50,219 bases of DNA. Source: Shigella phage phi2457T. The number at the start of each line of letters is the position of its first letter. Within the stretch, counting starts at the first letter, position 1. Positions 2,444 to 50,219 of the stretch are shown piece after piece. The position numbers and the translations under genes were made by a program. The stretch lies in sequence record MH917278. One strand, written 5' to 3'. The notes under the pieces were generated by a model. The model saw nothing but the letters and a program-made list of their open reading frames with translations, did no database searches and had not been told where the DNA came from.

Positions 2444-2617
2444 ATGATGCGCATTCTGATTTGCATGATGGCGGCGGTCGCCCTGGCTATCCTGGTAGTG
2501 TCCGGCTGTGGCGAGGTCAAAGAGCGATGCCATGAAACCGGGAACCAGGTTACTACTTTCGTGATGGTTGGCAACGTATTGCTACCAATCACATCAAATG
2601 AAATTACTTGCGAATAG
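2444..2617 (+). CDS. putative small lipoprotein (57 aa)
   Basis: Internal ATG of ORF 2360..2617 preceded by gggag; N-terminus MMRILICMMAAVALAILVVSGC has signal peptide plus lipobox-like LVVSGC. Confidence 0.35.
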   Translation: MMRILICMMAAVALAILVVSGCGEVKERCHETGNQVTTFVMVGNVLLPITSNEITCE

Positions 2618-2626
2618 GATTTAACA

Positions 2627-2818
2627 ATGGCTGATTTTATGCACCAAATGATTGCAGTATTCAAAGGTAGCGAAGATGAGGAAGTAAAGGAATGCTTTAC
2701 CTTCAACAAGTCTTATAGCGCGTCGCTAACCAGCTTCGGGAACATCTCATTGCTTGATGATAATGGCGACCCCTGGATATTCGACGAAGATACTGATTGC
2801 TTCGAAATTAAAGAATAG
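2627..2818 (+). CDS. hypothetical acidic protein (63 aa)
   Basis: ORF track; stop TAG lies in the conserved element at 2815. Confidence 0.45.
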   Translation: MADFMHQMIAVFKGSEDEEVKECFTFNKSYSASLTSFGNISLLDDNGDPWIFDEDTDCFEIKE

Positions 2819-2834
2819 CACTTTTTGTTAAAAC
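2815..2834 (+). promoter_or_regulatory. conserved intergenic element copy
   Basis: atagcactttttgttaaaac, hairpin ggggtt/aacccc with gatatagt in loop. Confidence 0.5.
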
Positions 2835-2888
2835 TCAATTCCGGGGTTGCGATATAGTAACCCCATCGATAACGAACGAGGATTTATC

Positions 2889-3095
2889 ATGAAACTGCGG
2901 TGCATTGAATCAAATCAAATTAACTACTCAGAAGGCTTCGAATATGTCGCTCAAATCGATAGCTTTACAAACAAAAGCGGAGAGGTTATTGATGTGGTTC
3001 ATGGAGTGTATACGTGGTTCTACTTTGACAAGAAAGCTCTAACAGCAACTAAGCGCAATGGCGATGTGGTGGCTAAATTTAAACGTGAACAATGA
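2889..3095 (+). CDS. hypothetical protein, member of small paralogous family (KC(I/V)...G.IY motif)
   Basis: Internal ATG (MKLRCIESNQ) with SD gagga; N-terminal motif shared with ORFs 3107, 4856, 8516, 42579, 46453. Confidence 0.45.
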   Translation: MKLRCIESNQINYSEGFEYVAQIDSFTNKSGEVIDVVHGVYTWFYFDKKALTATKRNGDVVAKFKREQ

Positions 3096-3106
3096 GGATT
3101 GAAATC

Positions 3107-4316: not shown

Positions 4317-4381
4317 CTTCCGCAAGGCCATTTGATATAGTGGCCTTATTGAAGCACGGCAACCAATCAGAGGAATCAGCT

Positions 4382-4588
4382 ATGGCTACACGACTCACGC
4401 AGTGGCAGATTTACGACAAGGCTTCACGCCTTCGTGAATCACTTCGAGGTCTGACACCGAACGATCGCATAGAAATCATCGGTCATGCATTGCACGAACT
4501 AACGCCGCATGACGTAACCTATCATTCTTGCGGCAATAAATTTTGGAACGTAACATTCGAGGTGAAGGAAGATGAGCAAAACTCATAA
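4382..4588 (+). CDS. hypothetical protein (68 aa)
   Basis: Internal ATG (MATRLTQ) preceded by conserved leader aaccaatcagaggaatcagct. Confidence 0.45.
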   Translation: MATRLTQWQIYDKASRLRESLRGLTPNDRIEIIGHALHELTPHDVTYHSCGNKFWNVTFEVKEDEQNS

Positions 4589-4859
4589 ATTAAAAATCGC
4601 CACGGTACATTTCATTGGGGTAATGAACGGAACAAAAACGGCAGAGTTCCGCATCAATGACCGCAACTTCCAGCCTGGAGATATCCTGGAGCTATGCGAG
4701 TTCGATCGTGACGAGTTTACCGGGTGGGAAGTTCACGCCAGGGTGTCCGATGTTACAGACGTGACGCCATACATCAATCGCGGGTATGACGATCAGGAAT
4801 GCGACTTCACGCAATACGTGATGTTATCAATCAAACCTTACAGGAAGGTTAGACCATGA
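4572..4859 (+). CDS. hypothetical protein (95 aa)
   Basis: ORF track; SD gaagga; overlaps neighbours by a few nt (translational coupling). Confidence 0.45.
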   Translation: MSKTHKLKIATVHFIGVMNGTKTAEFRINDRNFQPGDILELCEFDRDEFTGWEVHARVSDVTDVTPYINRGYDDQECDFTQYVMLSIKPYRKVRP

Positions 4860-5494
4860 AATTTGAATGCGTATCAAGTGACGGAACGGGATTTAAGTGG
4901 GGAAAAATCTACGAAGGCGCTCGCGTCAATAACGACAGCTTCGTTGTCGTGGATGAGCACGGTAGCAATGTGAACATCATCCGTCGTCACGAATACCAAG
5001 AAATTTTCCTGCCGTATGGCGGTAGTTCAAAATATATCTTCCATCGAATCGTGGATGGTGTTAAATTTAACGACGTAATCGAAGCAATCAACCAACTGCA
5101 TAATAAAGAGGTAAAATTTATGAAATTCGAATGTATCAGTGATAACACCAAAAAATTTACCGTCGGCAAAATTTACGACGTTCCCTCTGAGCACGCTAAG
5201 CACACGGCTGTAATTACCGACGACACGGGCCGCAACCGCATTGCAACCGTAACTCACAACGGCGAGGGTCTTCGCTGGAATAGCGGCGGCACTAAGTTTG
5301 CAACGTTCGGCAAGAAGCGCAAGCGCACTTTTTGCGTAAATGGCAAGGTTACAGCAAACAAGATCCACAACGTCAAGCCATCGGAAGTTGATCGTAAGCC
5401 AGCGACGAAGTTTGAAGAGAAAGCAGATTTGTCTGGTCTGGCTATCGCTCTTGTTCTCCTGGTCGCTTCTATTTCGCTGATGTTCATCATGTAA
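4856..5494 (+). CDS. membrane-anchored protein with internal tandem duplication of the paralogous small domain
   Basis: MKFECVSSDGTGFKWGKIYEG... repeated as MKFECISDNTKKFTVGKIYDV...; C-terminal hydrophobic segment LAIALVLLVASISLMFIM. Confidence 0.5.
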   Translation: MKFECVSSDGTGFKWGKIYEGARVNNDSFVVVDEHGSNVNIIRRHEYQEIFLPYGGSSKYIFHRIVDGVKFNDVIEAINQLHNKEVKFMKFECISDNTKKFTVGKIYDVPSEHAKHTAVITDDTGRNRIATVTHNGEGLRWNSGGTKFATFGKKRKRTFCVNGKVTANKIHNVKPSEVDRKPATKFEEKADLSGLAIALVLLVASISLMFIM

Positions 5495-26170: not shown

Positions 26171-29100
26171 ATGATTCAAAAAGTGATAAGTGGATCTAAA
26201 GGTGGATCACAAAAGCCGCATAAGCCAGTTGAGATGGAAGATAATCTAATCTCAATCAACAAAATCAAGATTCTTCTGGCAGTATCTGATGGCGAGGTTG
26301 ACGAAACATTCAACCTTAAGCAACTGATGTTTAACTCAGTCCCGGTGCAAAACGAGGATGGCTCTTTTAACTTTGAGGGCGTAACAGCAGAGTTCAGGCC
26401 GGGTACGCAGACTCAGGAATACATTAAGGGCATGGAGGATAGCTCCAGCGAGGTAACTGTAAACCGTGAGATTACTACCGATAATCCATACACGATCTCA
26501 GTAACCAACAAGACGCTGTCGGCAATCCGTATTAAAATGTTCATGCCTCGCGGCGTACGCATTGAAAGCAACGGCGATAAAAACGGCGTTCGCGTTGAGT
26601 ACGAAGTGCAGCAAGCGGTTGATAGTGGTTCGTTTGAGACTATTCTTACTGACGTAATCGAAGGCAAAACAATGTCAGGTTACGATCGAAGCCGTCGTGT
26701 AAACCTGCCAAACTTCAATAACCAGGTTATATTCAGGATTGTTCGAAAGACTCCAGATTCTGATAATTCAAACGTTGTTGATGCGATTCAGGTAAAGAGC
26801 TATGCCGAGGTGATTGATGCCAAATTCCGTTACCCTCTGACAGGTCTTCTTTTCGTAGAGTTCGACTCGAAGATGTTCCCAAACCAGTTACCTACGATCT
26901 CAATTCGTAAGCGATGGAAGATTATAAACGTTCCGTCAAACTACGATCCGGAATCACGAACTTATAACGGAAATTGGGATGGCACTTTTAAGAAGGCGTG
27001 GACTAATAATCCGGCTTGGGTTCTTTATGACTTGATGATTAATCAGCGTTACGGACTGGATCAGAAAGAGCTTGGAATATCTGTCGATAAATGGGCGCTA
27101 TATGAGGCGGCGCAATATTGCGACCAGATGGTTCCTGACGGGAAAGGCGGTACGGAGCCTCGCTACCTTTGCGACGTGATAATTCAGTCACAGACTGATG
27201 CGTACAAGGTGATTCGAGACATTTGCTCAATCTTCCGTGGTATGAGCTTCTGGAATGGCGAAAGCATCTCGGTAATCATCGACAGACCGCGTGAGCCTGC
27301 TTACATCTTCACTAACGACAACGTTGTTAATGGTGACTTCTCCTATACGTTCGCAAGCGAAAAGAGTATGTACACGACGTGTAACGTGATGTTTGACGAC
27401 GAGCAAAACATGTATCAACAGGACGTTGAGCCAGTATTCGATCGTGAGGCGACTCTGCGGTTCGGTAATAACGTAACCAGCATTACAGCGATCGGTTGCA
27501 CACGTCGAAGCGAGGCCAACCGACGTGGGAGATGGATTCTGAAAACCAACCTCCGCAGCACTACGGTAAACTTCGCTACCGGTCTTGAGGGTATGATCCC
27601 GACAATCGGAGATGTTGTGGCAATAGCTGATAACTTCTGGTCAAGTAACTTGACGATGAACCTATCAGGGCGCTTGCTCGAAGTGTCTGGAAGTCAGATT
27701 TTCTTGCCGTTCCGGGTGGATGCACGCGCGGGTGACTTTATTATCGTAAATAAGCCAGATGGCAAGCCCGTGAAGCGCACAATCTCAAGTGTTAGTGCGG
27801 ATGGTAAGACTATAGAGGTTAACATTGGCTTTGGCTTTCCTGTGAAGCCTAACACGGTATTCGCTATCGACCGCACAGACATTGCGTTACAGCAGTACGT
27901 CGTGACAAAAATCGATAAGGGTGATGACGATGAGGAATTTACCTACAAGATTACTGCGGTTGAGTACGATCCTAACAAGTACGATGAGATTGATTACGGT
28001 GTTAACATAGACGACAGACCGACGAGTATCGTTGAACCAGACCAGATCCCTAGACCGGAAAACGTGCAAGTGTCATCTGAGTCACGAATCGTCCAGGGGA
28101 TGAGCGTAGAGACGATGATTGTAAGCTGGGATAAAGTGCCGTACGCAGTTTTCTATGATGTTCAGTGGAGAAAGGATAACGGCAACTGGCAAAATGTACC
28201 ACAGACAGCAAACAAAGAGGTATACGTTGAAGGTATTTACGCTGGCAACTATCAGGTTCGCGTTCGCTCCGTAGCTGGTTCCGGTACGACTTCAGGATGG
28301 TCAAATATCGTAGCTGCGACGCTGACGGGCAAACAAGGTGAGCCGGGTCGACCGATTAACCTTACAGCTACGGATGATGTTGTTTTTGGTATCCGTACAA
28401 AATGGGGGTTCTCTGATGGTTCTGGAGATACGGCCTATACAGAGTTGCAACAGTCACCGGATGGAACGGTTGACAATGCGAGTTTACTCTCTCTGATCCC
28501 GTATCCGCAGCATGAGTATTATCATTCACCGATGCCGGGCGGGAATATTGTGTGGTATCGGGTAAGGACGGTTGATAGGATCGGTAACGTGTCTCAGTGG
28601 ACTGATTTTGTCAGAGGTATGGCATCAACAAACGTTGACGATATCATTGGGGAGATTTCTGTCGATATCGAAAACTCGCCTGGTTACGAGTGGCTTGTTG
28701 ATAACGCAACCGACAACGCGGCGCAGAACGCAGCTAACGCAGAGGCAGCAATAGAAAACGCGCTCGCCAATGACAAAGACGCGATCTATATGAAGAAGGA
28801 GAACGGAAAACGAAAGGCTGAGTACACGAAATCACTGAAACTTATTGCTGATGAGACGCAGGCACGAGTGACGGCGATCGAGCAATTGAAAGCAAGTTTT
28901 GGCGATCAGATTAGCGCAAGCAATAGTGAATTGCGTGAAGTTATCGCAACTGAGACAGGGGCGCTATCTCGTGAGATTGACCAACTCAAGGCAGAGATTG
29001 GTGATGATATTCAGGCAAGTTTGACCGATATCCGTGAAGCCATCGCGAACGAGACTGAGGCGAGAACGCAAGCTGACTTAACGTTAAGCGCGCAACTTGG

Positions 29101-29620
29101 GAATAACGAGGCAGCACTTTCTCAAAAACTTGACTCGTGGAGTAACGCCGATTCGACTGGTGCAATGTACGGCGTCAAGCTGGGCCTTAAGTATAATGGT
29201 CAGGAATACAGCGCAGGTATGGCTATGTCTCTGATTGGTTCTGGTGCGGCTGTTAAGGCTCAGATTCTTTTTGAGGCATCTCGATTTGCAATCATGACTG
29301 GCATGAACGGTCAGACTCAGTACCCATTCGTTGTTGAGAATGGCCAGGTTATTCTAAGTAGCGCGATCATCAAGGATGGCTTTATTACTAATGCCATGAT
29401 TGGAAACTGGATTCAATCTAACAATTGGGATGGGAATAATGGATGGGCCATAAACAAGAATGGCGACGCTTCATTCATGAATGCAACAGTGAGGGGTAGA
29501 ATTTACGCAAATAACGGAGAGTTTGCATTTAACGGAACAAATAACACGGTTCAGATAAACAATAACGGTATCACGGTCAACTTACCTAACGGGGGTCGAG
29601 TGGTTGTTGGTGTCTGGTAA
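26171..29620 (+). CDS. central tail fibre / host specificity protein (lambda gpJ-like)
   Basis: 1149 aa; position after I; FN3-like region and C-terminal coiled-coil with repeated units (ELREVIATETGA / TDIREAIANETEA). Confidence 0.85.
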   Translation: MIQKVISGSKGGSQKPHKPVEMEDNLISINKIKILLAVSDGEVDETFNLKQLMFNSVPVQNEDGSFNFEGVTAEFRPGTQTQEYIKGMEDSSSEVTVNREITTDNPYTISVTNKTLSAIRIKMFMPRGVRIESNGDKNGVRVEYEVQQAVDSGSFETILTDVIEGKTMSGYDRSRRVNLPNFNNQVIFRIVRKTPDSDNSNVVDAIQVKSYAEVIDAKFRYPLTGLLFVEFDSKMFPNQLPTISIRKRWKIINVPSNYDPESRTYNGNWDGTFKKAWTNNPAWVLYDLMINQRYGLDQKELGISVDKWALYEAAQYCDQMVPDGKGGTEPRYLCDVIIQSQTDAYKVIRDICSIFRGMSFWNGESISVIIDRPREPAYIFTNDNVVNGDFSYTFASEKSMYTTCNVMFDDEQNMYQQDVEPVFDREATLRFGNNVTSITAIGCTRRSEANRRGRWILKTNLRSTTVNFATGLEGMIPTIGDVVAIADNFWSSNLTMNLSGRLLEVSGSQIFLPFRVDARAGDFIIVNKPDGKPVKRTISSVSADGKTIEVNIGFGFPVKPNTVFAIDRTDIALQQYVVTKIDKGDDDEEFTYKITAVEYDPNKYDEIDYGVNIDDRPTSIVEPDQIPRPENVQVSSESRIVQGMSVETMIVSWDKVPYAVFYDVQWRKDNGNWQNVPQTANKEVYVEGIYAGNYQVRVRSVAGSGTTSGWSNIVAATLTGKQGEPGRPINLTATDDVVFGIRTKWGFSDGSGDTAYTELQQSPDGTVDNASLLSLIPYPQHEYYHSPMPGGNIVWYRVRTVDRIGNVSQWTDFVRGMASTNVDDIIGEISVDIENSPGYEWLVDNATDNAAQNAANAEAAIENALANDKDAIYMKKENGKRKAEYTKSLKLIADETQARVTAIEQLKASFGDQISASNSELREVIATETGALSREIDQLKAEIGDDIQASLTDIREAIANETEARTQADLTLSAQLGNNEAALSQKLDSWSNADSTGAMYGVKLGLKYNGQEYSAGMAMSLIGSGAAVKAQILFEASRFAIMTGMNGQTQYPFVVENGQVILSSAIIKDGFITNAMIGNWIQSNNWDGNNGWAINKNGDASFMNATVRGRIYANNGEFAFNGTNNTVQINNNGITVNLPNGGRVVVGVW

Positions 29621-29624
29621 CAGA

Positions 29625-29650
29625 AAGGGGCCGATTGGCCCCTTTTTTTA
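29625..29650. terminator. bidirectional terminator between convergent genes
   Basis: Hairpin ggggccgattggcccc flanked by A-run and T7. Confidence 0.65.
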
Positions 29651-30613
29651 ATACATGTTCGGAGTGAAAGGAATTGGCATTGAAATGTTTATATTGAAGG
29701 GGAATTGCGCTCCGCTTTGGGTGGAATAATTACCTACTCTTGTTCCTGGGGCGCTTCTCACGTTACCTCCGCTCATACACACGCCCTTGTATCGAATGTT
29801 ATTATATCCACCTGTAACTCTGCATATCGTACCTGTTCTTAGTATTGGGAAAAATCCACCACACCACTGCCACCCGTCATTTATCGCCATAGTCCCGCCG
29901 AGAACGAAGGGGCGTCTAACGCTTGAGAAGACGATCTGACCAGCAGGATTACTCATGGTTATTCCTGGCCCTGGGGGTGGTGGAGTGTTATTAAATATTA
30001 CGAGTTGCACGTATACGCTAGCGCCAACGTCATCAATCCCGTTATAGTTTGCATCCCTGCACCATATTGTATTGCCGTCAGATTCAAGTGTTACGTTTGG
30101 ATTATCCCACATACCGAAAGGAACGCCCTGCACTGGCAACTGAGCCTGACCGTTAACCTGAATCCCCCCAACAAATGCAGCGCTCATCAATCTGGCGTTA
30201 TTCGGTATAGCTGCGAAGTTCGTTGAATCGTTAACAAGTATCCCCTGATTTCCAGCCTGAGCGGGGAGGATTTCGTAGCAGTTTCCATAAAATCTCATCC
30301 TCCTTCCACCGTGCCCGTTAAAATTACCTACCGTTATTCGTCCGGTTGAATCATTTACCTTCTGAAAACTAGTCAAATAATACACCTCCGGGATGTAATC
30401 CATATCGTCTATGTAGATAGCCTGAGATGGAAGGCAAAAAGCGGTAGATCCTGGACTCATTTGCAGACCAAAATCAAAAACCGATCCAGATGAATCAACC
30501 CCGTCAGCCTGTATAGGTCCACACCATGACGGGGCGCGAAGCCCTGAAGTTATCTCCATTGCCGGGCGACCGTCGTTTAGGTTTATATATATTCCTTGCC
30601 CCATAATTACCAC
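29648..30613 (-). CDS. putative receptor-binding protein (T5 pb5-like role, inferred)
   Basis: 321 aa Gly/Asn-rich beta-type protein co-transcribed downstream of a lipoprotein gene, convergent with J; inference from arrangement. Confidence 0.4.
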   Translation of the reverse strand: MVIMGQGIYINLNDGRPAMEITSGLRAPSWCGPIQADGVDSSGSVFDFGLQMSPGSTAFCLPSQAIYIDDMDYIPEVYYLTSFQKVNDSTGRITVGNFNGHGGRRMRFYGNCYEILPAQAGNQGILVNDSTNFAAIPNNARLMSAAFVGGIQVNGQAQLPVQGVPFGMWDNPNVTLESDGNTIWCRDANYNGIDDVGASVYVQLVIFNNTPPPPGPGITMSNPAGQIVFSSVRRPFVLGGTMAINDGWQWCGGFFPILRTGTICRVTGGYNNIRYKGVCMSGGNVRSAPGTRVGNYSTQSGAQFPFNINISMPIPFTPNMY

Positions 30614-30837
30614 TCTTTAGTTTTGATTGACACCTTGCCGCTAAAGTTGCCCTGATCGTCGTCGGATGACAGACCTTTGAATCGCATATCAATTTCGCCA
30701 GCAGGAACCTTTTGACCATCAACGAATCGCATCATGCAAGAACCGTATGCGTAAGTAACGCAGTCGCCATTTTTAAGATTCTGAGCACAACCAGTCAGGA
30801 TGAATGCCGCAGCGATAATGGTGATTAACTTTTTCAT
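30607..30837 (-). CDS. superinfection-exclusion lipoprotein (Cor/Llp-like)
   Basis: 76 aa; signal peptide MKKLITIIAAAFILTGC with lipobox LTGC; adjacent to putative receptor-binding gene. Confidence 0.6.
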   Translation of the reverse strand: MKKLITIIAAAFILTGCAQNLKNGDCVTYAYGSCMMRFVDGQKVPAGEIDMRFKGLSSDDDQGNFSGKVSIKTKEW

Positions 30838-33612: not shown

Positions 33613-33640
33613 AAAATCCCCGCAATGCGGGGATTTTATC
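33613..33640. terminator. bidirectional terminator
   Basis: Hairpin atccccgcaatgcggggat flanked by A-run and T-run, between convergent genes. Confidence 0.65.
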
Positions 33641-35423
33641 ATTTGGACTTCAACATTTTTATCTCTTCTTGTAACTCTTCAACTTTCTTTATTGTATCCT
33701 GTAAAGCTCTCATAGTGTCAAGCAATAAAGGAGTTGTATCAAGCTCAAGCCTTTCAACTTTTGGCCCGTTTAGCTCGTGGCTCTCATACATCCTTCTCTT
33801 AACATATAGATTGTCGATCTCTTCTATCTCCTGAGCTATGACACCTCGCCTTACCCTTTCTTGCTCATCATCGTTAAAGATAAAGTTCCTAAATCTCATT
33901 GATTTTATGTTGTTGTATGCAATGCTTGATTCATCATCCTTTATGCTGTGCTTTATATTTCTGTCAGATGCCGGAATCTGTTGGAAACTTCCAGCCCCTT
34001 GCGGTCCAGCGTAAGATATTTGCCCTGAAGCCATAAACCTGAAATGCATTTGCAAACCAATATTGCCTGCCCCATCCCTATCTTGAGCACCTACTGATAT
34101 TTGTGCCCTGGGCCATTCAGGATTGCCCGTAGTCATCATGCCAAAAGCTACGCCGCCAACATACCCTTGACCCCTTGTATCACACGATCCAGCAATAAGT
34201 GATTGATAGTTTTCAGCGCCACTATCGGCAGTGTAAGCATTACCCTGGAAGCATGAAGCAGACCACATCTGGTTGTAACCCATAGATGTTTTCTGGCATA
34301 AAAACTGATTAGCTCTAAATCTATTGTTAGTCTCGAAGTAGTTTGCCCCTTCATAAAATAATAAAGCCCCAGCATAACCATTATCGCTATGTTCTTTTCT
34401 GACGTAAATCCCTGGTGTGGATATTCCATCAGGTGACATAATCATCAATGATGACAATATGGACTGACTACCCCAATTAGAACCGTTCCATGAGTTCCTT
34501 CCTGCCCCTATAGCTCCCGTGGTGTTAACAGTAAGAAAGTTAACAGCATCATTTTCACCTAACCCAATATTTTTTCTTGACTCTTTTTTATCATCAAGAC
34601 CAGCTAGATTGCCATCCTTAGTTAAAAGATTTTCAGCATTGATGCTGTTAGCTGCGTCTTTTGCTTCTTGAGCACTTACCGCAGCAGCATCTTTTGAGCT
34701 TACCGCTTCGTCACGCGCTGCCTGAGCGTCGTTTTTTGCAGAGGTAGCCGTTTGTGCTGCCGTTTGAGCGTCATTAACGTAACCTGACAGATCGCCTTTC
34801 GCGTCATTAATTGCCTGAATCGCCGCCGCTTCTTCTGAGTCAATGTGAGTGATGGATGAATTTTCTTTTTGCTGCACATCGGTTATAGCCTGATCCTTAG
34901 CCGCATTGATGCTACCGACAGCACCGTCAACAATCTGTTGCGTCTGATTCTTGATTGAGTTAGTTTCATCGCGTGCAGCGTTGGCTGCGTCACGCGCTAA
35001 TTCAGCCTGATTTTGCGCAGCTTGAGAATCAGATTTCGCCTGATTCACATCAGCAACTATTTGCTCAAGTTTATTCATATCAAGCTGATTTATCAGGTCT
35101 ATAGCTTCCGCAATCTCAGTCTCTTTGCTTTGATAGTATCGCAGAGTCTCGGCGACGTTTTGAGCTAATCCGTTAACGGTTAGAGAGTCATTAAGTAGGA
35201 TCACATACTTACCGTCATCGGCAGTCTGACCATCAGTAGAGATAGCCTTTAATTCTGTATCACTAACGATATCGCTAATCACAGCCAGCTTAATTGGTTG
35301 CTCAAGGAACACGATAGTTGCACCTACGCGAATAAGAGCAAGCTGATCTTTCCATTTTGTATCGGTTCCGTGAACCGTTCCGTCTGCATCCATTGATGCA
35401 GTACCGCGTCTGTATAAAGCCAT
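33639..35423 (-). CDS. side tail fibre with C-terminal S74-type intramolecular chaperone domain
   Basis: 594 aa; Ala/Gln/Asp-rich coiled-coil repeats; C-terminal region SDRNIKHSIKDDESSIAYNNIKSMRFRNFIFND...RRGVIAQEIEEID matches the auto-cleaving chaperone-of-endosialidase domain. Confidence 0.75.
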   Translation of the reverse strand: MALYRRGTASMDADGTVHGTDTKWKDQLALIRVGATIVFLEQPIKLAVISDIVSDTELKAISTDGQTADDGKYVILLNDSLTVNGLAQNVAETLRYYQSKETEIAEAIDLINQLDMNKLEQIVADVNQAKSDSQAAQNQAELARDAANAARDETNSIKNQTQQIVDGAVGSINAAKDQAITDVQQKENSSITHIDSEEAAAIQAINDAKGDLSGYVNDAQTAAQTATSAKNDAQAARDEAVSSKDAAAVSAQEAKDAANSINAENLLTKDGNLAGLDDKKESRKNIGLGENDAVNFLTVNTTGAIGAGRNSWNGSNWGSQSILSSLMIMSPDGISTPGIYVRKEHSDNGYAGALLFYEGANYFETNNRFRANQFLCQKTSMGYNQMWSASCFQGNAYTADSGAENYQSLIAGSCDTRGQGYVGGVAFGMMTTGNPEWPRAQISVGAQDRDGAGNIGLQMHFRFMASGQISYAGPQGAGSFQQIPASDRNIKHSIKDDESSIAYNNIKSMRFRNFIFNDDEQERVRRGVIAQEIEEIDNLYVKRRMYESHELNGPKVERLELDTTPLLLDTMRALQDTIKKVEELQEEIKMLKSK

Positions 35424-39565: not shown

Positions 39566-40279
39566 ATGAAAGACTTTAATGATATCGAAACCATTGATTT
39601 TGCTGAAACTGGTTGCTCATTTACTCGCGAAGCAATAGCATCAGGCGGTTATTATCAGGCATTGAAAACCCCAACCTGCAAAGAGATTTCAGGACGTCGA
39701 TACAAGGGAACCAATACGCCGGATGCTGTTCGTGATTTATGGTCAACTCCACGAGAGGTTATCGCATATCTTGAGGGGCGCTACGGAAAATATGATCTAG
39801 ACGCTGCGGCAAGCGAAGAAAATAAAGTTTGCGAGAAGTTTTATTCCCAGGAAACAAACTGCTTAAAACGTTGGTGGGGTAAAAATAAGCACGTATGGTT
39901 AAATCCTCCTTACAGTCGACCTGATATATTCGTCAAGAAAGCGATTGAGCAAATGGAGCACAACAACCAGATCGATATTCTTTTACCTGCCGATAACTCG
40001 ACGGCGTGGTTTACTGAGGCTCGACAGCACGCGGCTGAAATCATCTGGATTGAAGCTGATTTGACTGAGGATATTGACGGAAATGAATACGCACGATCCG
40101 GTCGTCTGGCTTTCATATCAGGTGAAACTGGAAAAGCCGTAGACGGCAACAATAAAGGTTCGGTTATTTTTATTATGCGCGAACTTAAAGAAGGTGAGAC
40201 GCAACAGACTCACTACATCCCAATCACAAGCATTTGTCCTTCCGTTAAAAACAAACGAGCAAAGGTGAGAAAAGTATGA
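39566..40279 (+). CDS. dam: DNA N6-adenine methyltransferase (Dam-like)
   Basis: 237 aa with catalytic DPPY-type motif NPPYS; typical phage Dam size. Confidence 0.75.
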   Translation: MKDFNDIETIDFAETGCSFTREAIASGGYYQALKTPTCKEISGRRYKGTNTPDAVRDLWSTPREVIAYLEGRYGKYDLDAAASEENKVCEKFYSQETNCLKRWWGKNKHVWLNPPYSRPDIFVKKAIEQMEHNNQIDILLPADNSTAWFTEARQHAAEIIWIEADLTEDIDGNEYARSGRLAFISGETGKAVDGNNKGSVIFIMRELKEGETQQTHYIPITSICPSVKNKRAKVRKV

Positions 40280-40527
40280 TGAGCGAAAAAATGGTTCCTG
40301 TTAAATTAACTGATCAAGGGTTATGGCTTCTTTATCGCGCTACGTGCTGCGAAATTATGGAGAGAAACGGATTAACTCAAGATGTTATTGGTTGCGATTT
40401 ATGGGAGTTTACAAGTTCTCTTGATATGTCGTTCGATGAGATAAAGAATAAACACATAGAGCATTGGCCTTCAATCATTCAGAAAGACGTAGAAGAACTT
40501 AAATCCGACACGATCTTACAGCACTAA
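40276..40527 (+). CDS. hypothetical protein (83 aa)
   Basis: ORF track; ATGA overlap with dam. Confidence 0.4.
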   Translation: MMSEKMVPVKLTDQGLWLLYRATCCEIMERNGLTQDVIGCDLWEFTSSLDMSFDEIKNKHIEHWPSIIQKDVEELKSDTILQH

Positions 40528-40537
40528 TTGCTAAAAC
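40519..40537 (+). promoter_or_regulatory. conserved intergenic element copy
   Basis: cagcactaattgctaaaac overlapping stop codon, then hairpin acccg/cgggt and tatagt. Confidence 0.45.
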
Positions 40538-40593
40538 TACCCGGCGAAAGTCGGGTATAGTTATTTCATCAAAACGAAATGAGGAATAATAAG

Positions 40594-41363: not shown

Positions 41364-42515
41364 ATGTCACAAGCTAAAATCACTACCGAGCAACTTATCG
41401 AAGAGCGCATGAGCGGCCTTACACTTCGCGAGATCGCGGAAAAGTACGGTATGCACATCCGCACAGTTGAAGCGCGTCACGCCAAACTTGCAAAAGAAGG
41501 TCACTTCCACGGTAACGAGCATGTTGCTAAGAACGTACCGGAAGGATTCATGGTAAAAGGAACATCAACGATGATTCGCGGCGATGGGACCGAGGTAGTG
41601 CGATGGGTTAAGACCGATCAGGACCGAGAGAAGATTGCTGCAATGATGGAAGCAGCGCGTATTGCATTCTGTGAAGACTTGCCGCGAGCAAAACCAACCG
41701 AGCTACTCACCTCGCAAGGGCTTACAACCGCTATTGGCAAGCTGGCACTCTACCCGGTGTTCGATCTTCACATTGGCGCGCTTGCTCACAAGCATGAATG
41801 CGGAGAGAACTACTCTACAGACGTAGCGGAAAAAGTGCTGAATGACTTCTTTAACTACGCGATCGATATTGCCCCGAACGCAGAGAAGGCTGTTCTGTTA
41901 ATCGGAGGCGACTTCCTTCACTCAGACGGTCTTGATGCTGTTACCCCGGCAAGTGGTCACGTTCTGGATCAGGATTCACGATATGCGAAATTGGTGCATG
42001 TGGCTATTCGATCGGTGCGACGAGCTATCGACAAAATGCTGACTAAACACAAAGAGGTCGAAGTTCAGGTTATCGAAGGGAACCACGACCAGGCCGGAAT
42101 GATTTGGCTACGCGCTGCAATGGCTGCATACTATGAGGACGAGCCGCGAGTATTCGTTGACGTTAGTCCTATGATTCTGCATAAGACCCGCTGGGGAAAT
42201 ACCTTGTTGGGATACACTCACGGTCACACGATGAAAAAGGCAGACACGCGACTTGCAGCGATGGCAGCAGATTTCCGCGCAGATTTTGGTGAAAGCAAAT
42301 ACGTGTACACGCATAGCGGACACTGGCATCATCAGACAATTACTGAACACTCGTTAGGTATTGATGAAGTGCACGGTCAGTTAGGCGCGAAGGATGCATA
42401 CGCAGCACGCGGAGGGTGGCGCTCATATCGCCAGGCGGCGGTAATTGTTTACGATAAGCAATTTGGGGAAATCGGTCGTTTCATCTATCGTCCAGAAATG
42501 ACAGGATCGCACTAA
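41364..42515 (+). CDS. metallophosphoesterase-family protein with N-terminal HTH domain
   Basis: N-terminus LTLREIAEKYGMHIRTVEARH (HTH-like); phosphoesterase motifs DLHIGALAH, GGDFLHSDG, EGNHD (GNHD as in Mre11/SbcD-type enzymes). Confidence 0.5.
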   Translation: MSQAKITTEQLIEERMSGLTLREIAEKYGMHIRTVEARHAKLAKEGHFHGNEHVAKNVPEGFMVKGTSTMIRGDGTEVVRWVKTDQDREKIAAMMEAARIAFCEDLPRAKPTELLTSQGLTTAIGKLALYPVFDLHIGALAHKHECGENYSTDVAEKVLNDFFNYAIDIAPNAEKAVLLIGGDFLHSDGLDAVTPASGHVLDQDSRYAKLVHVAIRSVRRAIDKMLTKHKEVEVQVIEGNHDQAGMIWLRAAMAAYYEDEPRVFVDVSPMILHKTRWGNTLLGYTHGHTMKKADTRLAAMAADFRADFGESKYVYTHSGHWHHQTITEHSLGIDEVHGQLGAKDAYAARGGWRSYRQAAVIVYDKQFGEIGRFIYRPEMTGSH

Positions 42516-42526
42516 TTGATAAAAAC
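42507..42526 (+). promoter_or_regulatory. conserved intergenic element copy (degenerate)
   Basis: tcgcactaattgataaaaac then gggtatagt and leader catcgaaaacaaagagga. Confidence 0.4.
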
Positions 42527-42578
42527 ACCAGAAGGGATTCGGGTATAGTAACAACATCGAAAACAAAGAGGATATATC

Positions 42579-43978: not shown

Positions 43979-43993
43979 CCTCCTTTTCTTTTA
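43962..43993. terminator. bidirectional terminator
   Basis: Hairpin aaggaggcttagcctcctt flanked by A-run and T-rich run between convergent genes. Confidence 0.6.
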
Positions 43994-44206
43994 TGCGTCT
44001 TCCCACATATAACTTTCGTTCGTGAGTTTTGCGTATTCGCGAACCTCAATCTCGCAGGTGTCGCCGTACATCTCAGCGACCTTCTTCTCGTTCGCTACCG
44101 CCGTTTCTTCAGTCCATCCATCATCCTTGCTGTAAAGGGTAGGAATCTCACTACTAGTGCCGTTAGAGTGGTTGTAAACGCGAACTACTAAAAATTTGTC
44201 AGCCAT
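43991..44206 (-). CDS. hypothetical protein (71 aa)
   Basis: ORF track; preceded on minus strand by conserved element, hairpin acccgatc/gatcgggt and SD. Confidence 0.4.
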   Translation of the reverse strand: MADKFLVVRVYNHSNGTSSEIPTLYSKDDGWTEETAVANEKKVAEMYGDTCEIEVREYAKLTNESYMWEDA

Positions 44207-44270
44207 GATGTTTTCCTTCAGGTCGTTTAATTTCGATGAAACAAATATACCCGATACGAGATCGGGTGTT

Positions 44271-44288
44271 TTAACAAAAAGTGCTATT
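44271..44288 (-). promoter_or_regulatory. conserved intergenic element copy (minus orientation)
   Basis: Plus strand ttaacaaaaagtgctatt = reverse complement AATAGCACTTTTTGTTAA. Confidence 0.5.
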
Positions 44289-46951: not shown

Positions 46952-47162
46952 ACCAGGGAATATAATCGTCGTCGTCCTCATCAATATCATCGCCAGGTAA
47001 CTCGAAGTTTGGATTATATTCGCTTTCTGCGTCCATATCCATATTCCCTAGAGCGTCCTCAAGTGTGATTTCTTTATATGCAACCTTGATACACCATTCC
47101 GCACTAAGCCCGGCATCAAGAGCGGCAAAATAACGAGTCCAGAAATTATCCCGTTCCATCAA
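46950..47162 (-). CDS. small acidic protein (70 aa)
   Basis: ORF track; C-terminus ELPGDDIDEDDDDYIPW strongly acidic. Confidence 0.4.
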   Translation of the reverse strand: MMERDNFWTRYFAALDAGLSAEWCIKVAYKEITLEDALGNMDMDAESEYNPNFELPGDDIDEDDDDYIPW

Positions 47163-47387
47163 TTAACTCCATGAATTAATGTAAATTGAGTTAGCCTCAA
47201 GCGTAGCGCGCACATCAGCATCTGTTGCATTTACTAAGCGCGAGCCTGGCGTGCTGCCGATAACGTTATTACCGTTACGAGTCTTAGTTACCGTCATTGA
47301 AATAAAACCGGAAGACTTATCCATTTTGATAACTACACGGCCTTTCGCGTTCAGGTGCTTGATGATATTCTCAACTTTAATGCTCAT
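47163..47387 (-). CDS. hypothetical protein (74 aa)
   Basis: ORF track; SD aaggaa upstream. Confidence 0.4.
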   Translation of the reverse strand: MSIKVENIIKHLNAKGRVVIKMDKSSGFISMTVTKTRNGNNVIGSTPGSRLVNATDADVRATLEANSIYINSWS

Positions 47388-47446
47388 CTTTAATTCCTTT
47401 GTTTGTTTGGTGTGGGAGTAATATACCTTACTCCCGGTTTGTTGTC

Positions 47447-47465
47447 TTTAGCTATTCGTGCTATC
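47447..47465 (-). promoter_or_regulatory. conserved intergenic element copy (minus orientation)
   Basis: Plus strand tttagctattcgtgctatc; hairpin gggagta...tactccc downstream on minus strand. Confidence 0.45.
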
Positions 47466-47607
47466 AGTACTCAGAAATTACTTTGCACTCTTTGATTGTG
47501 CCACCTAGAACTACTTTCTGCATCATTGCTTTTTGATGGCTATCGTAAACGCGAACATTTTTTACGCTGTTAAATTTGCCAGTATAGAAAGTGTGAATGT
47601 AAATCAT
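47464..47607 (-). CDS. possible small ORF (47 aa)
   Basis: ATG overlaps stop of upstream gene (ATGA); below ORF-track cutoff; coordinates approximate. Confidence 0.2.
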   Translation of the reverse strand: MIYIHTFYTGKFNSVKNVRVYDSHQKAMMQKVVLGGTIKECKVISEY

Positions 47608-47924
47608 TTTTTACCGTCCCAAGTTTGATACGCCGTCACCAGGTTGATGCTATGGTCGAACTCATCAATGCTGAGAGATCCGATTCGAACCAATTCTTTT
47701 TCATGCTTAATATCAATCATCCTGCTATATGGATGACCTGGCACGTATTTGAAAAGTCGCTTGCTGTCGGCAATGTCAGCGTTGATCCCGTAGAATCTAC
47801 CTACCGCTGCCTTCACGCGCTCCATGATATTTTTTTCGTGAATTGCCGCCGCGTTATTCAGTGCCGCAACCGTGCTTCCGTTAATCTTCGGTGACTTCGT
47901 TGTGATCTTGTAAGTGTGGTTCAT
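47604..47924 (-). CDS. hypothetical protein (106 aa)
   Basis: Internal ATG (MNHTYKITT) with SD aggggg; avoids overlap with upstream ORF. Confidence 0.4.
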   Translation of the reverse strand: MNHTYKITTKSPKINGSTVAALNNAAAIHEKNIMERVKAAVGRFYGINADIADSKRLFKYVPGHPYSRMIDIKHEKELVRIGSLSIDEFDHSINLVTAYQTWDGKK

Positions 47925-47940
47925 TATTCCCCCTAACCAG

Positions 47941-48141
47941 TCAGGATAGCTTTCTCGCTTCATCAATGATAACAGGTTCGAGGCGCTCAAGTCGAACGCT
48001 GAACGTGTTCATAAATCCCTCGTTGTTCTTCAATAATTCGAATGCGTCCGTAGCTTCAATGGCGCTACTGCCCATGTAAGCGATCACGCTCTTCTGTGTC
48101 TTGCGTGAGATCGCCACTACGCGGTAAATATTATCACTCAT
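47941..48141 (-). CDS. hypothetical protein (66 aa)
   Basis: Internal ATG (MSDNIYRV) with SD aaggaag. Confidence 0.4.
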   Translation of the reverse strand: MSDNIYRVVAISRKTQKSVIAYMGSSAIEATDAFELLKNNEGFMNTFSVRLERLEPVIIDEARKLS

Positions 48142-48505
48142 ACAATGCTTCCTTAACACGGTCCGCAATGCAGGAGTTAACGGCGATTGAATAGTTAGCT
48201 ACACCCCATAATGCAATATTGCCAAGCTCGGTCCGCATTGATGGGTTGTTTAGCTGAATGATTGTCTCTCCCGTGTCTTTATCGACGAAGCGAGACACGC
48301 CAGAATGGTCCACTACGCGGGTTACTCGGTTCACGCACTCCATTGCATCACTTACACCGTAATAAGCGCTTAGAGCGGCTCTCACTGCCTTCTCTTGCTT
48401 GTTGTAAATCTTGCGCGCAATGTTCTCGATCGCTACGTTCTCTTTCTCGTCAGTCTGGATTGCTGTGCTTGCTGAGAAGTCCAGGTTTATGAATTGCTTA
48501 ATCAT
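48134..48505 (-). CDS. hypothetical protein (123 aa)
   Basis: Internal ATG (MIKQFINL) with SD gaggg. Confidence 0.4.
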   Translation of the reverse strand: MIKQFINLDFSASTAIQTDEKENVAIENIARKIYNKQEKAVRAALSAYYGVSDAMECVNRVTRVVDHSGVSRFVDKDTGETIIQLNNPSMRTELGNIALWGVANYSIAVNSCIADRVKEALYE

Positions 48506-48509
48506 ATAA

Positions 48510-48740
48510 TTACCCTCTGAAACTATCAATAGTGTCGTTGATGTATTTCACTTGCGCCTCAACGTCAGACGTTGCGATATACTGGAATGTATCGTAATCA
48601 TCCCGCAAATCGACAAGCTCGACCTTTGTGTGATGCTCTTTCAGGCCGCCCATGTGACCGTAATGCGTGCGATAGACGATAAATCCCTCATCATTGGCTC
48701 GCTGGATTGCTTTCTTTAATCCGGGATGCTTAATTGCCAT
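48510..48740 (-). CDS. hypothetical protein (76 aa)
   Basis: Internal ATG (MAIKHPG) after conserved leader aaccaatcaggagaatcacc. Confidence 0.4.
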   Translation of the reverse strand: MAIKHPGLKKAIQRANDEGFIVYRTHYGHMGGLKEHHTKVELVDLRDDYDTFQYIATSDVEAQVKYINDTIDSFRG

Positions 48741-48797
48741 CTGGTGATTCTCCTGATTGGTTGATGCGTTAACCATACCCCGATCTCGCTCGGGGCG

Positions 48798-48816
48798 TTT
48801 AGCAATTCGTGCTATT
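48798..48816 (-). promoter_or_regulatory. conserved intergenic element copy (minus orientation)
   Basis: Plus strand tttagcaattcgtgctatt; hairpin ccccgagcgagatcgggg downstream on minus strand; contains stop of upstream gene. Confidence 0.5.
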
Positions 48817-49150
48817 AAGCAATATCGAACTCAGCGGCGTATGCTTCTTTGATGCCAGCTTCACGCATGGTGCGCTTACTGATTTTGCGCGGGAATTTGT
48901 ACTGGCTGTTAGGCATCACCCACCAGAAGCAAGCAGTCTCGCGAACGATTTCATATTTACCGTAACGAGTGAAGGTATCGCGTTCCATATCAGGCTGGTT
49001 AACACAGGTCAGGAATTTAACTGCCTTGTCTTCAGTTTTGATTTCTTCCCAAACGAAGGAGTCCATTCCGTTAACCTTGCAAGCAACCATGATGTACTCA
49101 ACGCCGTTTTCGATTTTGATGATTTCGTTACCGCGATTTTCGTATTTCAT
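48815..49150 (-). CDS. hypothetical protein (111 aa)
   Basis: ORF track; leader catcgaaacgagatacacatcaggag upstream resembles plus-strand leaders. Confidence 0.45.
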   Translation of the reverse strand: MKYENRGNEIIKIENGVEYIMVACKVNGMDSFVWEEIKTEDKAVKFLTCVNQPDMERDTFTRYGKYEIVRETACFWWVMPNSQYKFPRKISKRTMREAGIKEAYAAEFDIA

Positions 49151-49213
49151 TTTCTTGCTCCTGATGTGTATCTCGTTTCGATGAGGTAATTATGCCAAAT
49201 CACACCGATCGAG

Positions 49214-49232
49214 TTTTAACAAAAAGTGCTAT
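49214..49232 (-). promoter_or_regulatory. conserved intergenic element copy (minus orientation)
   Basis: Plus strand ttttaacaaaaagtgctatc. Confidence 0.5.
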
Positions 49233-49920
49233 CCGCGATTGCTTTGAAAAATCCCCTGGGCGACAGAGATCGTATCAACTTAGTTTTGGCAGATTTGCCG
49301 CCTAGCTTACTGTGCTGTGCAGAGTACCCGTCAGGTATGCTTACAGGTTTTCTCTCTGGCATGACAAAATCGTCAGAGGTCCAAAGGCAAGTTTTCTTCG
49401 GGTAAGCATCGCGCGGCGCAATATACATCGGGAACCAGGGGTGTGAGTCATTCTCAGGAAGATAGCCGCCATACTCCCAGGGATTGAAGGAGTGATTTGG
49501 TTTTCTCCAGGCAGATGACAGGACGCTAACCGGATTCTCAATGATGTAAGTCACACCCAGGCTATCGCCAATGTTCGCGGCAATCCTTGCGGTGGCAACG
49601 GCCTTTTCCTGGAATAACGGATCGCGTTCACGCTTTCTTGCGAAGTGGGCGGCACCGCTAACAGCCAGGTCGGTACACGGCGGGAAGGCCATAATGAAAT
49701 CCGGCTTGCCATACACGCCAGCTATAGCATCACGCTCAAACGCTGCGTCAATGAACACGTTCACATACTCAATGTTCGGATGCTCCACCCGGGCATTGTA
49801 CTTTGCATAATCACCGTGATCGGCTCCGTCAAAGTTGAAGCACATCACCTTGTGACCTTGCTTAGCCAGTTCATGACCAGCAAGACCGGAACCGTCGAAT
49901 AGCGACCAAATCAACTTCAT
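49216..49920 (-). CDS. DNA cytosine-C5 methyltransferase-like protein (compact)
   Basis: Motif I-like LFDGSGLAG, motif IV-like FPPCTD (catalytic Pro-Cys), motif VI-like IIENP; only 234 aa so target-recognition and C-terminal motifs are unclear. Confidence 0.45.
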   Translation of the reverse strand: MKLIWSLFDGSGLAGHELAKQGHKVMCFNFDGADHGDYAKYNARVEHPNIEYVNVFIDAAFERDAIAGVYGKPDFIMAFPPCTDLAVSGAAHFARKRERDPLFQEKAVATARIAANIGDSLGVTYIIENPVSVLSSAWRKPNHSFNPWEYGGYLPENDSHPWFPMYIAPRDAYPKKTCLWTSDDFVMPERKPVSIPDGYSAQHSKLGGKSAKTKLIRSLSPRGFFKAIADSTFC

Positions 49921-50060
49921 TTTGCGATCTCCTTTTTGTAGTGATTCAGCTTGTCGATGATTGACTTCGACTTGTTGGCTAGCGCCATGTCAGAGAACAG
50001 AGCCACGCGATAGATGTGTTCGTAACGATTAATGGCCGCGTTGATGTTTGCAATATTCAT
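49920..50060 (-). CDS. possible small ORF (46 aa)
   Basis: ATG after conserved leader aaccaatcagaggaatcgac; stop overlaps ATG of the methyltransferase-like gene (ATGA). Confidence 0.3.
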
Positions 50061-50118
50061 GTCGATTCCTCTGATTGGTTGATGAGATGAATAATACCCG
50101 ATCTACCCGGGTGACGTG

Positions 50119-50135
50119 TGGCAAAAAATGCTATT
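50119..50135 (-). promoter_or_regulatory. conserved intergenic element copy (degenerate, minus orientation)
   Basis: Plus strand tggcaaaaaatgctatt; hairpin and leader follow on minus strand. Confidence 0.35.
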
Positions 50136-50219
50136 CCAATAGTTGCTCATTATTCCACCATCAATGGAATATCTGGAATAATTGCGATCCCGATTGATCT
50201 CGAATGATGAAATGTGATT

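Follow-up and report, generated by a model that had tools for sequence, protein, structure and literature searches.

The 50,219-nt stretch of Shigella phage phi2457T DNA in sequence record MH917278 (the whole stretch is referred to here as the window) raises the question of what two putative DNA methyltransferase genes contribute to the phage, and in particular what the less conventional of their products is. The original prediction described a Dam homolog and a protein of 234 aa on the opposite strand that might be an atypical methyltransferase, another kind of base-modifying enzyme or an inactive relic. Both open reading frames are present (Table 1). Both genes are already-known DNA methyltransferases of T1-like phages and are correctly named in related GenBank records; they encode SAM-dependent enzymes that are stand-alone (orphan), because neither has an adjacent restriction gene. 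We consider it very probable that both proteins are active methyltransferases of the expected classes, namely Dam N6-adenine and cytosine-C5. Close or moderately close relatives have already revealed the biology, and the practical value of these assignments lies in annotation and in the choice of phage.

Table 1. Features of the two methyltransferase loci, in window coordinates
Feature	Position	Strand	Basis
Dam-type N6-adenine DNA methyltransferase, 237 aa	39566..40279	+	ORF, profiles, orthology to T1 Dam (ST20)
83-aa ORF corresponding to T1 ST19, its start overlapping the stop codon of dam	40276..40527	+	ORF; comparison with T1
GC-rich hairpin ACCCGGCGAAAGTCGGGT and, 3' of it, a T-rich tail	40539..40556	+	sequence read, pattern match
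Compact Dcm-like cytosine-C5 DNA methyltransferase, 234 aa	49216..49920	-	motifs, fold, homologs
47-aa ORF immediately upstream of the Dcm-like gene, ATGA overlap with its start	49917..50060	-	ORF, overlap read
Ribosome-binding site AAGGAG (Shine-Dalgarno), 8 nt upstream of the Dcm-like ATG	49929..49934	-	sequence read

The window belongs to a T1-like siphovirus (Tunavirus, Drexlerviridae). Phage T1 is collinear with it over most of its length at 85-93% identity, and because this collinearity ends at window position 48506, T1 has nothing equivalent to the final 1.7 kb of the window. The segment from 47000 to 50219 is 90-95% identical to the corresponding DNA of phages such as SA12KD, CLB_P3, Sfin-1 to Sfin-6 and LeonhardEuler. 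The right-end segment that T1 lacks (48507-50219) carries ORFs of 88, 111 and 47 aa in addition to the Dcm-like gene, and the content between the homolog of T1 gene 1 and the methylase also differs from one relative to another, SH6 and pSf-2 having additional small ORFs there. Other segments without a blastn match to T1 of 200 bp or more lie at 300-1793, 2617-3102, 4366-5108, 29058-30788, 33637-34588, 41614-42542 and 43990-44285. These internal segments look like mosaic insertions or replacements; the one at 29058-30788 corresponds to the T1 region comprising the end of the gene 33 tail protein, genes 31-32 and the cor gene, and the one at 33637-34588 falls inside the region of the T1 tail-fibre gene 26.

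The assignment of the first gene was straightforward. The Dam protein scored above the curated cutoffs of both PF05869 (E 4.8e-69, 231.8 bits, cutoff 28.1) and TIGR01712, "phage N-6-adenine-methyltransferase" (E 4.1e-71, 237.8 bits, cutoff 97.05), and it matched phrog_111 with an E of 3.3e-85. The NPPYS sequence that had been recognized as its catalytic motif is found at residues 113-117, where NPPY (113-116) conforms to the (D/N)PP(Y/F) pattern of motif IV. T1 Dam (ST20) is of equal length, also contains NPPY and is identical at 234 of 237 residues (99%); the three substitutions, from window to T1, are I138M, H155N and T212V. The genes are arranged in the same way in both phages, in the order helicase, VRR-NUC nuclease, dam, a small ORF overlapping the dam stop codon and a terminator. 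On sequence comparison, the window protein is the ortholog of T1 Dam.

T1 Dam is reportedly a GATC-specific N6-adenine methyltransferase, as described in the T1 literature of the 1980s to 1990 (Auer, Scherzer and Schweiger); our own literature search on T1 Dam retrieved nothing usable. By orthology, the window enzyme should methylate N6 of adenine in GATC through its NPPY active-site motif. We counted 251 GATC sites in the window against 318 in a Markov expectation, an unremarkable and non-discriminating number that represents no depletion relative to base composition. In T1, the 252-bp ST19 gene lies directly 3' of dam with an overlap like that of the 83-aa ORF in the window. The hairpin that follows would provide a terminator-like end to the dam transcription unit, and the T1 record has a rho-independent terminator annotated at the equivalent place (39998-40024).

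A leftward gene cluster occupies the right end of the genome, and its second ORF is the Dcm-like gene. Because its ATG overlaps the stop codon of the 47-aa ORF (ATGA), the two genes are probably translationally coupled. An equivalent of the 47-aa ORF with the same overlap is found in pSf-2 (gp70, 144 bp), and SA12KD has a longer version. A tblastn search of phage T1 found no homolog of the Dcm-like protein, which makes the gene an accessory one within Tunavirus.

Profile searches with the Dcm-like protein gave a mixed outcome. It matched phrog_757 ("DNA methyltransferase") over residues 1-231 with an E of 4.9e-84. A search of Pfam and NCBIfam returned no match to the protein even at permissive E values, and the C5 DNA methylase family PF00145 was absent at E values up to 1 and up to 10; 16 of 28 close relatives matched PF00145 weakly (best E 1.3e-6). 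No significant match was obtained in the PDB by sequence with either the single protein or a 28-sequence profile, and a 58-sequence profile retrieved M.HaeIII only, at a marginal E of 0.043. The hhalign comparison with E. coli Dcm was also weak (E 0.29, then 0.045), so that it shows the register of the motifs and is no proof of homology.

Homologs of the protein are abundant. They occur in 1,515 phage records. Clustering at 90% identity leaves more than 4,800 clusters with homologs, and at 50% identity an exhaustive HMMER scan found 1,846, of which 824 reached E <= 1e-10. The ortholog in the Tunavirus LeonhardEuler is 98.7% identical, and the BASEL annotation of both LeonhardEuler and KarlJaspers already reads "Dcm-like C5 cytosine methyltransferase". 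That product name, together with the tested homolog from phages K42 and KarlJaspers described below, means that the family, its name and its activity are already known. The protein is thus not the oddity it might have appeared to be, since it belongs to a large, annotated and experimentally studied family. Proteins with 40-55% identity to it are also encoded in several unannotated records labelled "Campylobacter phage" (128-150 kb and 50 kb); these records may be mislabelled or contaminated assemblies of enterobacterial phages.

The motifs on which the cytosine-C5 assignment was first based are present in the predicted order. The FxGxG-like motif I reads FDGSG (residues 8-12), motif IV reads PPC (80-82) and contains the catalytic Cys82, and motif VI reads ENP (128-130) and contains Glu128. 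In profile alignments with E. coli Dcm and M.HaeIII, motif I falls on motif I (LFAGIGG in Dcm, LFSGAGG in M.HaeIII), the PPC cysteine on the catalytic cysteine (FPCQ and PPCQ, respectively) and ENP on the ENV of Dcm. Motif VIII (QxRxR) and the "GN" of motif X are absent from the window protein as sequence patterns. In comparison with canonical C5-methyltransferases (PF00145; M.HhaI, M.HaeIII), therefore, the protein shares the order and register of motifs I, IV and VI and the same fold, but it differs in lacking a PF00145 match, QxRxR and a sizeable recognition domain, and its profile similarity to them is marginal (E ~0.04).

E. coli Dcm has 472 aa, about twice as many as the 234 aa of the window protein, which had been suggested to be too short for a standard enzyme. 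This was correct insofar as there is no distinct target-recognition domain: only ~20 residues (182-200) separate the strand at 177-181 from the C-terminal helices. The length itself is not unusual, as nearly all of the full-length family members listed have ~210-260 aa. Because this is the norm of the family, the short length is not a truncation.

A member of the family from outside Tunavirus has been characterized experimentally. Phage K42 is 95.4% identical to the BASEL phage KarlJaspers and has the same 711-bp dcm gene (10.1101/2023.08.16.553469; the peer-reviewed version is given in later papers as Wang et al., Cell Rep 2024;43:114857). All four K42 escapers of retron Ec86 carried lesions in or just upstream of this gene, expression of K42 Dcm was toxic only when Ec86 was present, and K42 Dcm raised the 5mC content of the Ec86 msDNA as determined by LC-MS (10.1101/2023.08.16.553469). 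The quadruple mutant C82A/E128A/K175A/K176A was inert (10.1101/2023.08.16.553469).

Alignment of the KarlJaspers protein (MZ501090, bas06_0055, 711 bp) with the window protein covers 229 residues at 55% identity (E 2e-87). The two belong to the same compact family (236 and 234 aa), although 45% of their residues differ and KarlJaspers is a member of Tempevirinae whereas the window phage is a member of Tunavirinae. Since the numbering coincides after a 2-residue gap near residue 40, C82, E128, K175 and K176 of one protein correspond exactly to those of the other. Each gene is also on the same strand as, and shortly before, a second helicase gene of ~1.6 kb. From the tested homolog we infer that the window protein is an active, stripped-down cytosine-C5 methyltransferase. 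The suggestion of an atypical methyltransferase was thus well founded, given the C5-methyltransferase fold, the invariant Cys82 and Glu128 and a 55%-identical homolog that makes 5mC, the canonical product of C5-methyltransferases.

We considered the 47-aa ORF as a partner that supplies specificity to the methyltransferase. Such a partner is unlikely to be required because the ORF preceding the KarlJaspers gene is of another size (225 bp) and does not overlap it, and because K42 Dcm alone was sufficient in vivo.

Patterns of conservation bear on the proposal that a C5-methyltransferase lost its recognition domain and left the 234-aa protein as an inactive remnant. Among six Tunavirus orthologs (15 pairs, Nei-Gojobori), dN/dS was 0.03-0.07 with dS up to 0.62, and this strong purifying selection indicates that the protein is not a relic. 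In an alignment of 58 members down to 31% identity, C82, G89, E128, P130, P147, Y173, W180 and P188 are invariant and F79, P80, T83, N129, K175, R217 and G223 are at least 90% conserved; C82, E128, K175 and K176 are all invariant in the closer set of 28 sequences. The most conserved blocks among 222 members are residues 81-90, 121-180 and 221-230. Invariance of the catalytic Cys and Glu, the persistence of the compact length across the 1,846 clusters and the catalytic activity of a homolog of the same length all speak against loss of function, and we regard an inactive remnant as extremely unlikely.

Within the loop between beta-2 and beta-3 (residues 31-38), D31, D34, H35, G36 and Y38 are invariant in the 28-sequence set and less so in distant members. 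These residues have no counterpart among the classic C5-methyltransferase motifs and possibly contact SAM or DNA.

Structural comparison identified the C5-methyltransferase catalytic fold in the window protein. The best neighbour is the catalytic domain of DNMT3A/DNMT3B, with only 14-17% sequence identity; 186 of the 234 residues align with the catalytic core of DNMT3B. DNMT1, M.HaeIII, M.MpeI, DNMT2 and others were further neighbours. DNMT3 enzymes are dimers or tetramers that act on CpG and carry regulatory domains, and because the phage enzyme resembles proteins that act as oligomers, it may itself dimerize.

The same comparison prompted a different reading, in which a C5-methyltransferase fold serves another chemistry or substrate, such as carboxymethyl transfer from Cx-SAM, a step in hypermodification or RNA methylation as in DNMT2. 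The impetus came from two structural neighbours, 8yf3 and DNMT2, of which 8yf3 alone would favor a base-modifying enzyme other than a methylase. All other top neighbours are ordinary DNA 5mC methyltransferases, and the product that LC-MS detected on DNA for the K42 homolog was 5mC. A companion modification enzyme was not recognizable among the annotated gene neighbours in six related phages, all of which are hypothetical, and K42 Dcm needed no partner in vivo. We consider another chemistry or substrate very unlikely; apart from 8yf3, nothing spoke for the corresponding part of the original prediction.

If the window protein is a cytosine-C5 methyltransferase, it would be expected to follow the canonical chemistry of that class. 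SAM would bind at the FDGSG loop and the target cytosine would be flipped out of the helix. The Cys82 thiolate in the PPC loop would then attack C6 while Glu128 of ENP protonates N3, and transfer of the methyl group to C5 would be followed by a beta-elimination that frees the enzyme. K175 and K176 are located on strand beta-7, just before the strand at 177-181, and the K42 study treats them, from a superposition on DNMT3A, as the equivalent substrate-binding residues (10.1101/2023.08.16.553469). Here they would replace the usual arginines of motif VIII. Contacts with DNA would presumably be made by the loop of ~20 residues (~182-200) together with the strongly conserved, family-specific segment 138-176.

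How a C5-methyltransferase of 234 aa chooses its target without a recognition domain is a question of modest interest, and the data do not point in one direction. Whether the target is specifically CCWGG appears to us about evenly balanced. The CCWGG target of K42 Dcm was taken from that of E. coli Dcm and was not mapped (10.1101/2023.08.16.553469). Defense against K42 was lost when the CC in the CCTGG of the msDNA stem was mutated (10.1101/2023.08.16.553469), and a dcm gene is encoded, according to the authors, by 34 of 35 Ec86-sensitive phages from three families (10.1101/2023.08.16.553469). Both observations favor CCWGG, the second because it suggests that diverse members may share a site. 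The window contains 93 CCWGG sites against a Markov expectation of ~100, which is unremarkable and does not discriminate between the possibilities.

Several other observations would fit an active C5-methyltransferase whose target is not CCWGG, and which instead recognizes a shorter or relaxed motif or another cytosine in CCWGG, or prefers hairpin or single-stranded DNA. Strain MG1655, the host in the K42 experiments, carries its own dcm gene, yet the control msDNA had low 5mC (10.1101/2023.08.16.553469). It follows that the phage enzyme does something that host Dcm does not, and the cytosine or context on which it acts may be another one. K42 Dcm was assigned its specificity by name, and the compact protein offers no room for a canonical recognition domain of the kind used for a 5-bp site. 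Under this reading a variable loop (~189-203) sets specificity, and the window enzyme and K42 Dcm could differ in their targets. Across the 222 members, residues 191-200 are among the most variable positions, and no other internal block of the C-terminal half varies more. At least two loop forms exist, GYSxQH in 103 of 222 members, including the window protein, and NPGW in 27 of 222, including the KarlJaspers protein. The window sequence at this target-recognition position is GYSAQH, as opposed to NPGW in K42 and KarlJaspers. With the mutated CCTGG and the 34 sensitive phages weighing against it, a target other than CCWGG seems to us plausible, though we lean against it. Because the loop types differ and the K42 target was assigned by name, specificity can be carried over from K42 to the window enzyme only by inference.

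A broader idea, which we hold as speculative and rather doubtful, is that the compact family reads DNA unlike other bacterial C5-methyltransferases, by means of a swappable loop of ~15 residues and perhaps DNMT3-like dimerization. If this is true, the target of the window enzyme would differ from, or be broader than, the CCWGG assumed for K42 Dcm, and the type of loop would decide which restriction systems the phage evades and which retrons it triggers.

Whichever cytosine is modified, the Dcm-like gene would presumably be expressed early, and a likely benefit would be that phage DNA is methylated in advance and thereby protected from 5mC-sensitive restriction enzymes. In the BASEL study, the methyltransferase genes of Drexlerviridae showed no simple relation to restriction resistance. 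A cost is documented for the K42 homolog, where the methylated msDNA stem-loop of retron Ec86/Eco1 triggers abortive infection (10.1101/2023.08.16.553469). A trade-off between this benefit and the retron cost would fit a dispensable gene with a pattern of presence and absence, as T1 lacks it. Methyltransferases recur as retron triggers, since a phage adenine methyltransferase triggers other retrons (PMC12548924). We set that paper aside as a source on the Dcm-like protein because its enzyme is the adenine methyltransferase of Bas51. A literature search for 5mC in the DNA of T1-like phages yielded nothing usable. For the choice of phage, we predict that a Tunavirus with a Dcm-like gene is cytosine-modified and sensitive to hosts with retron Ec86/Eco1, such as E. 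coli BL21, whereas phage T1, without this gene, should not be affected by Ec86/Eco1 in the same way.

The region downstream of dam contains a short element that is shared more widely. A 38-nt element at window positions 40520-40557 (plus strand), which combines the stop codon of the 83-aa ORF 3' of dam with the hairpin ACCCGGCGAAAGTCGGGT, is 97-100% identical in ~190 records of Klebsiella phages (Webervirus), in which the flanking genes are far more diverged than the element itself. We rejected the idea that these phages have the dam region in common, as the shared part is the terminator-like element without the dam gene. In Klebsiella phage GH-K3, the element is located directly 3' of a compact Dcm-like gene whose product shares 42% identity with the window protein. 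The window has a related hairpin, ACCCGGGTAGATCGGGT, at 50096-50112 (minus strand), ~35 nt upstream of the 47-aa ORF that lies ahead of the Dcm-like gene. The hairpin pattern thus occurs twice in the window against 0.03 expected occurrences, and the shared element is probably a conserved terminator module of Drexlerviridae.
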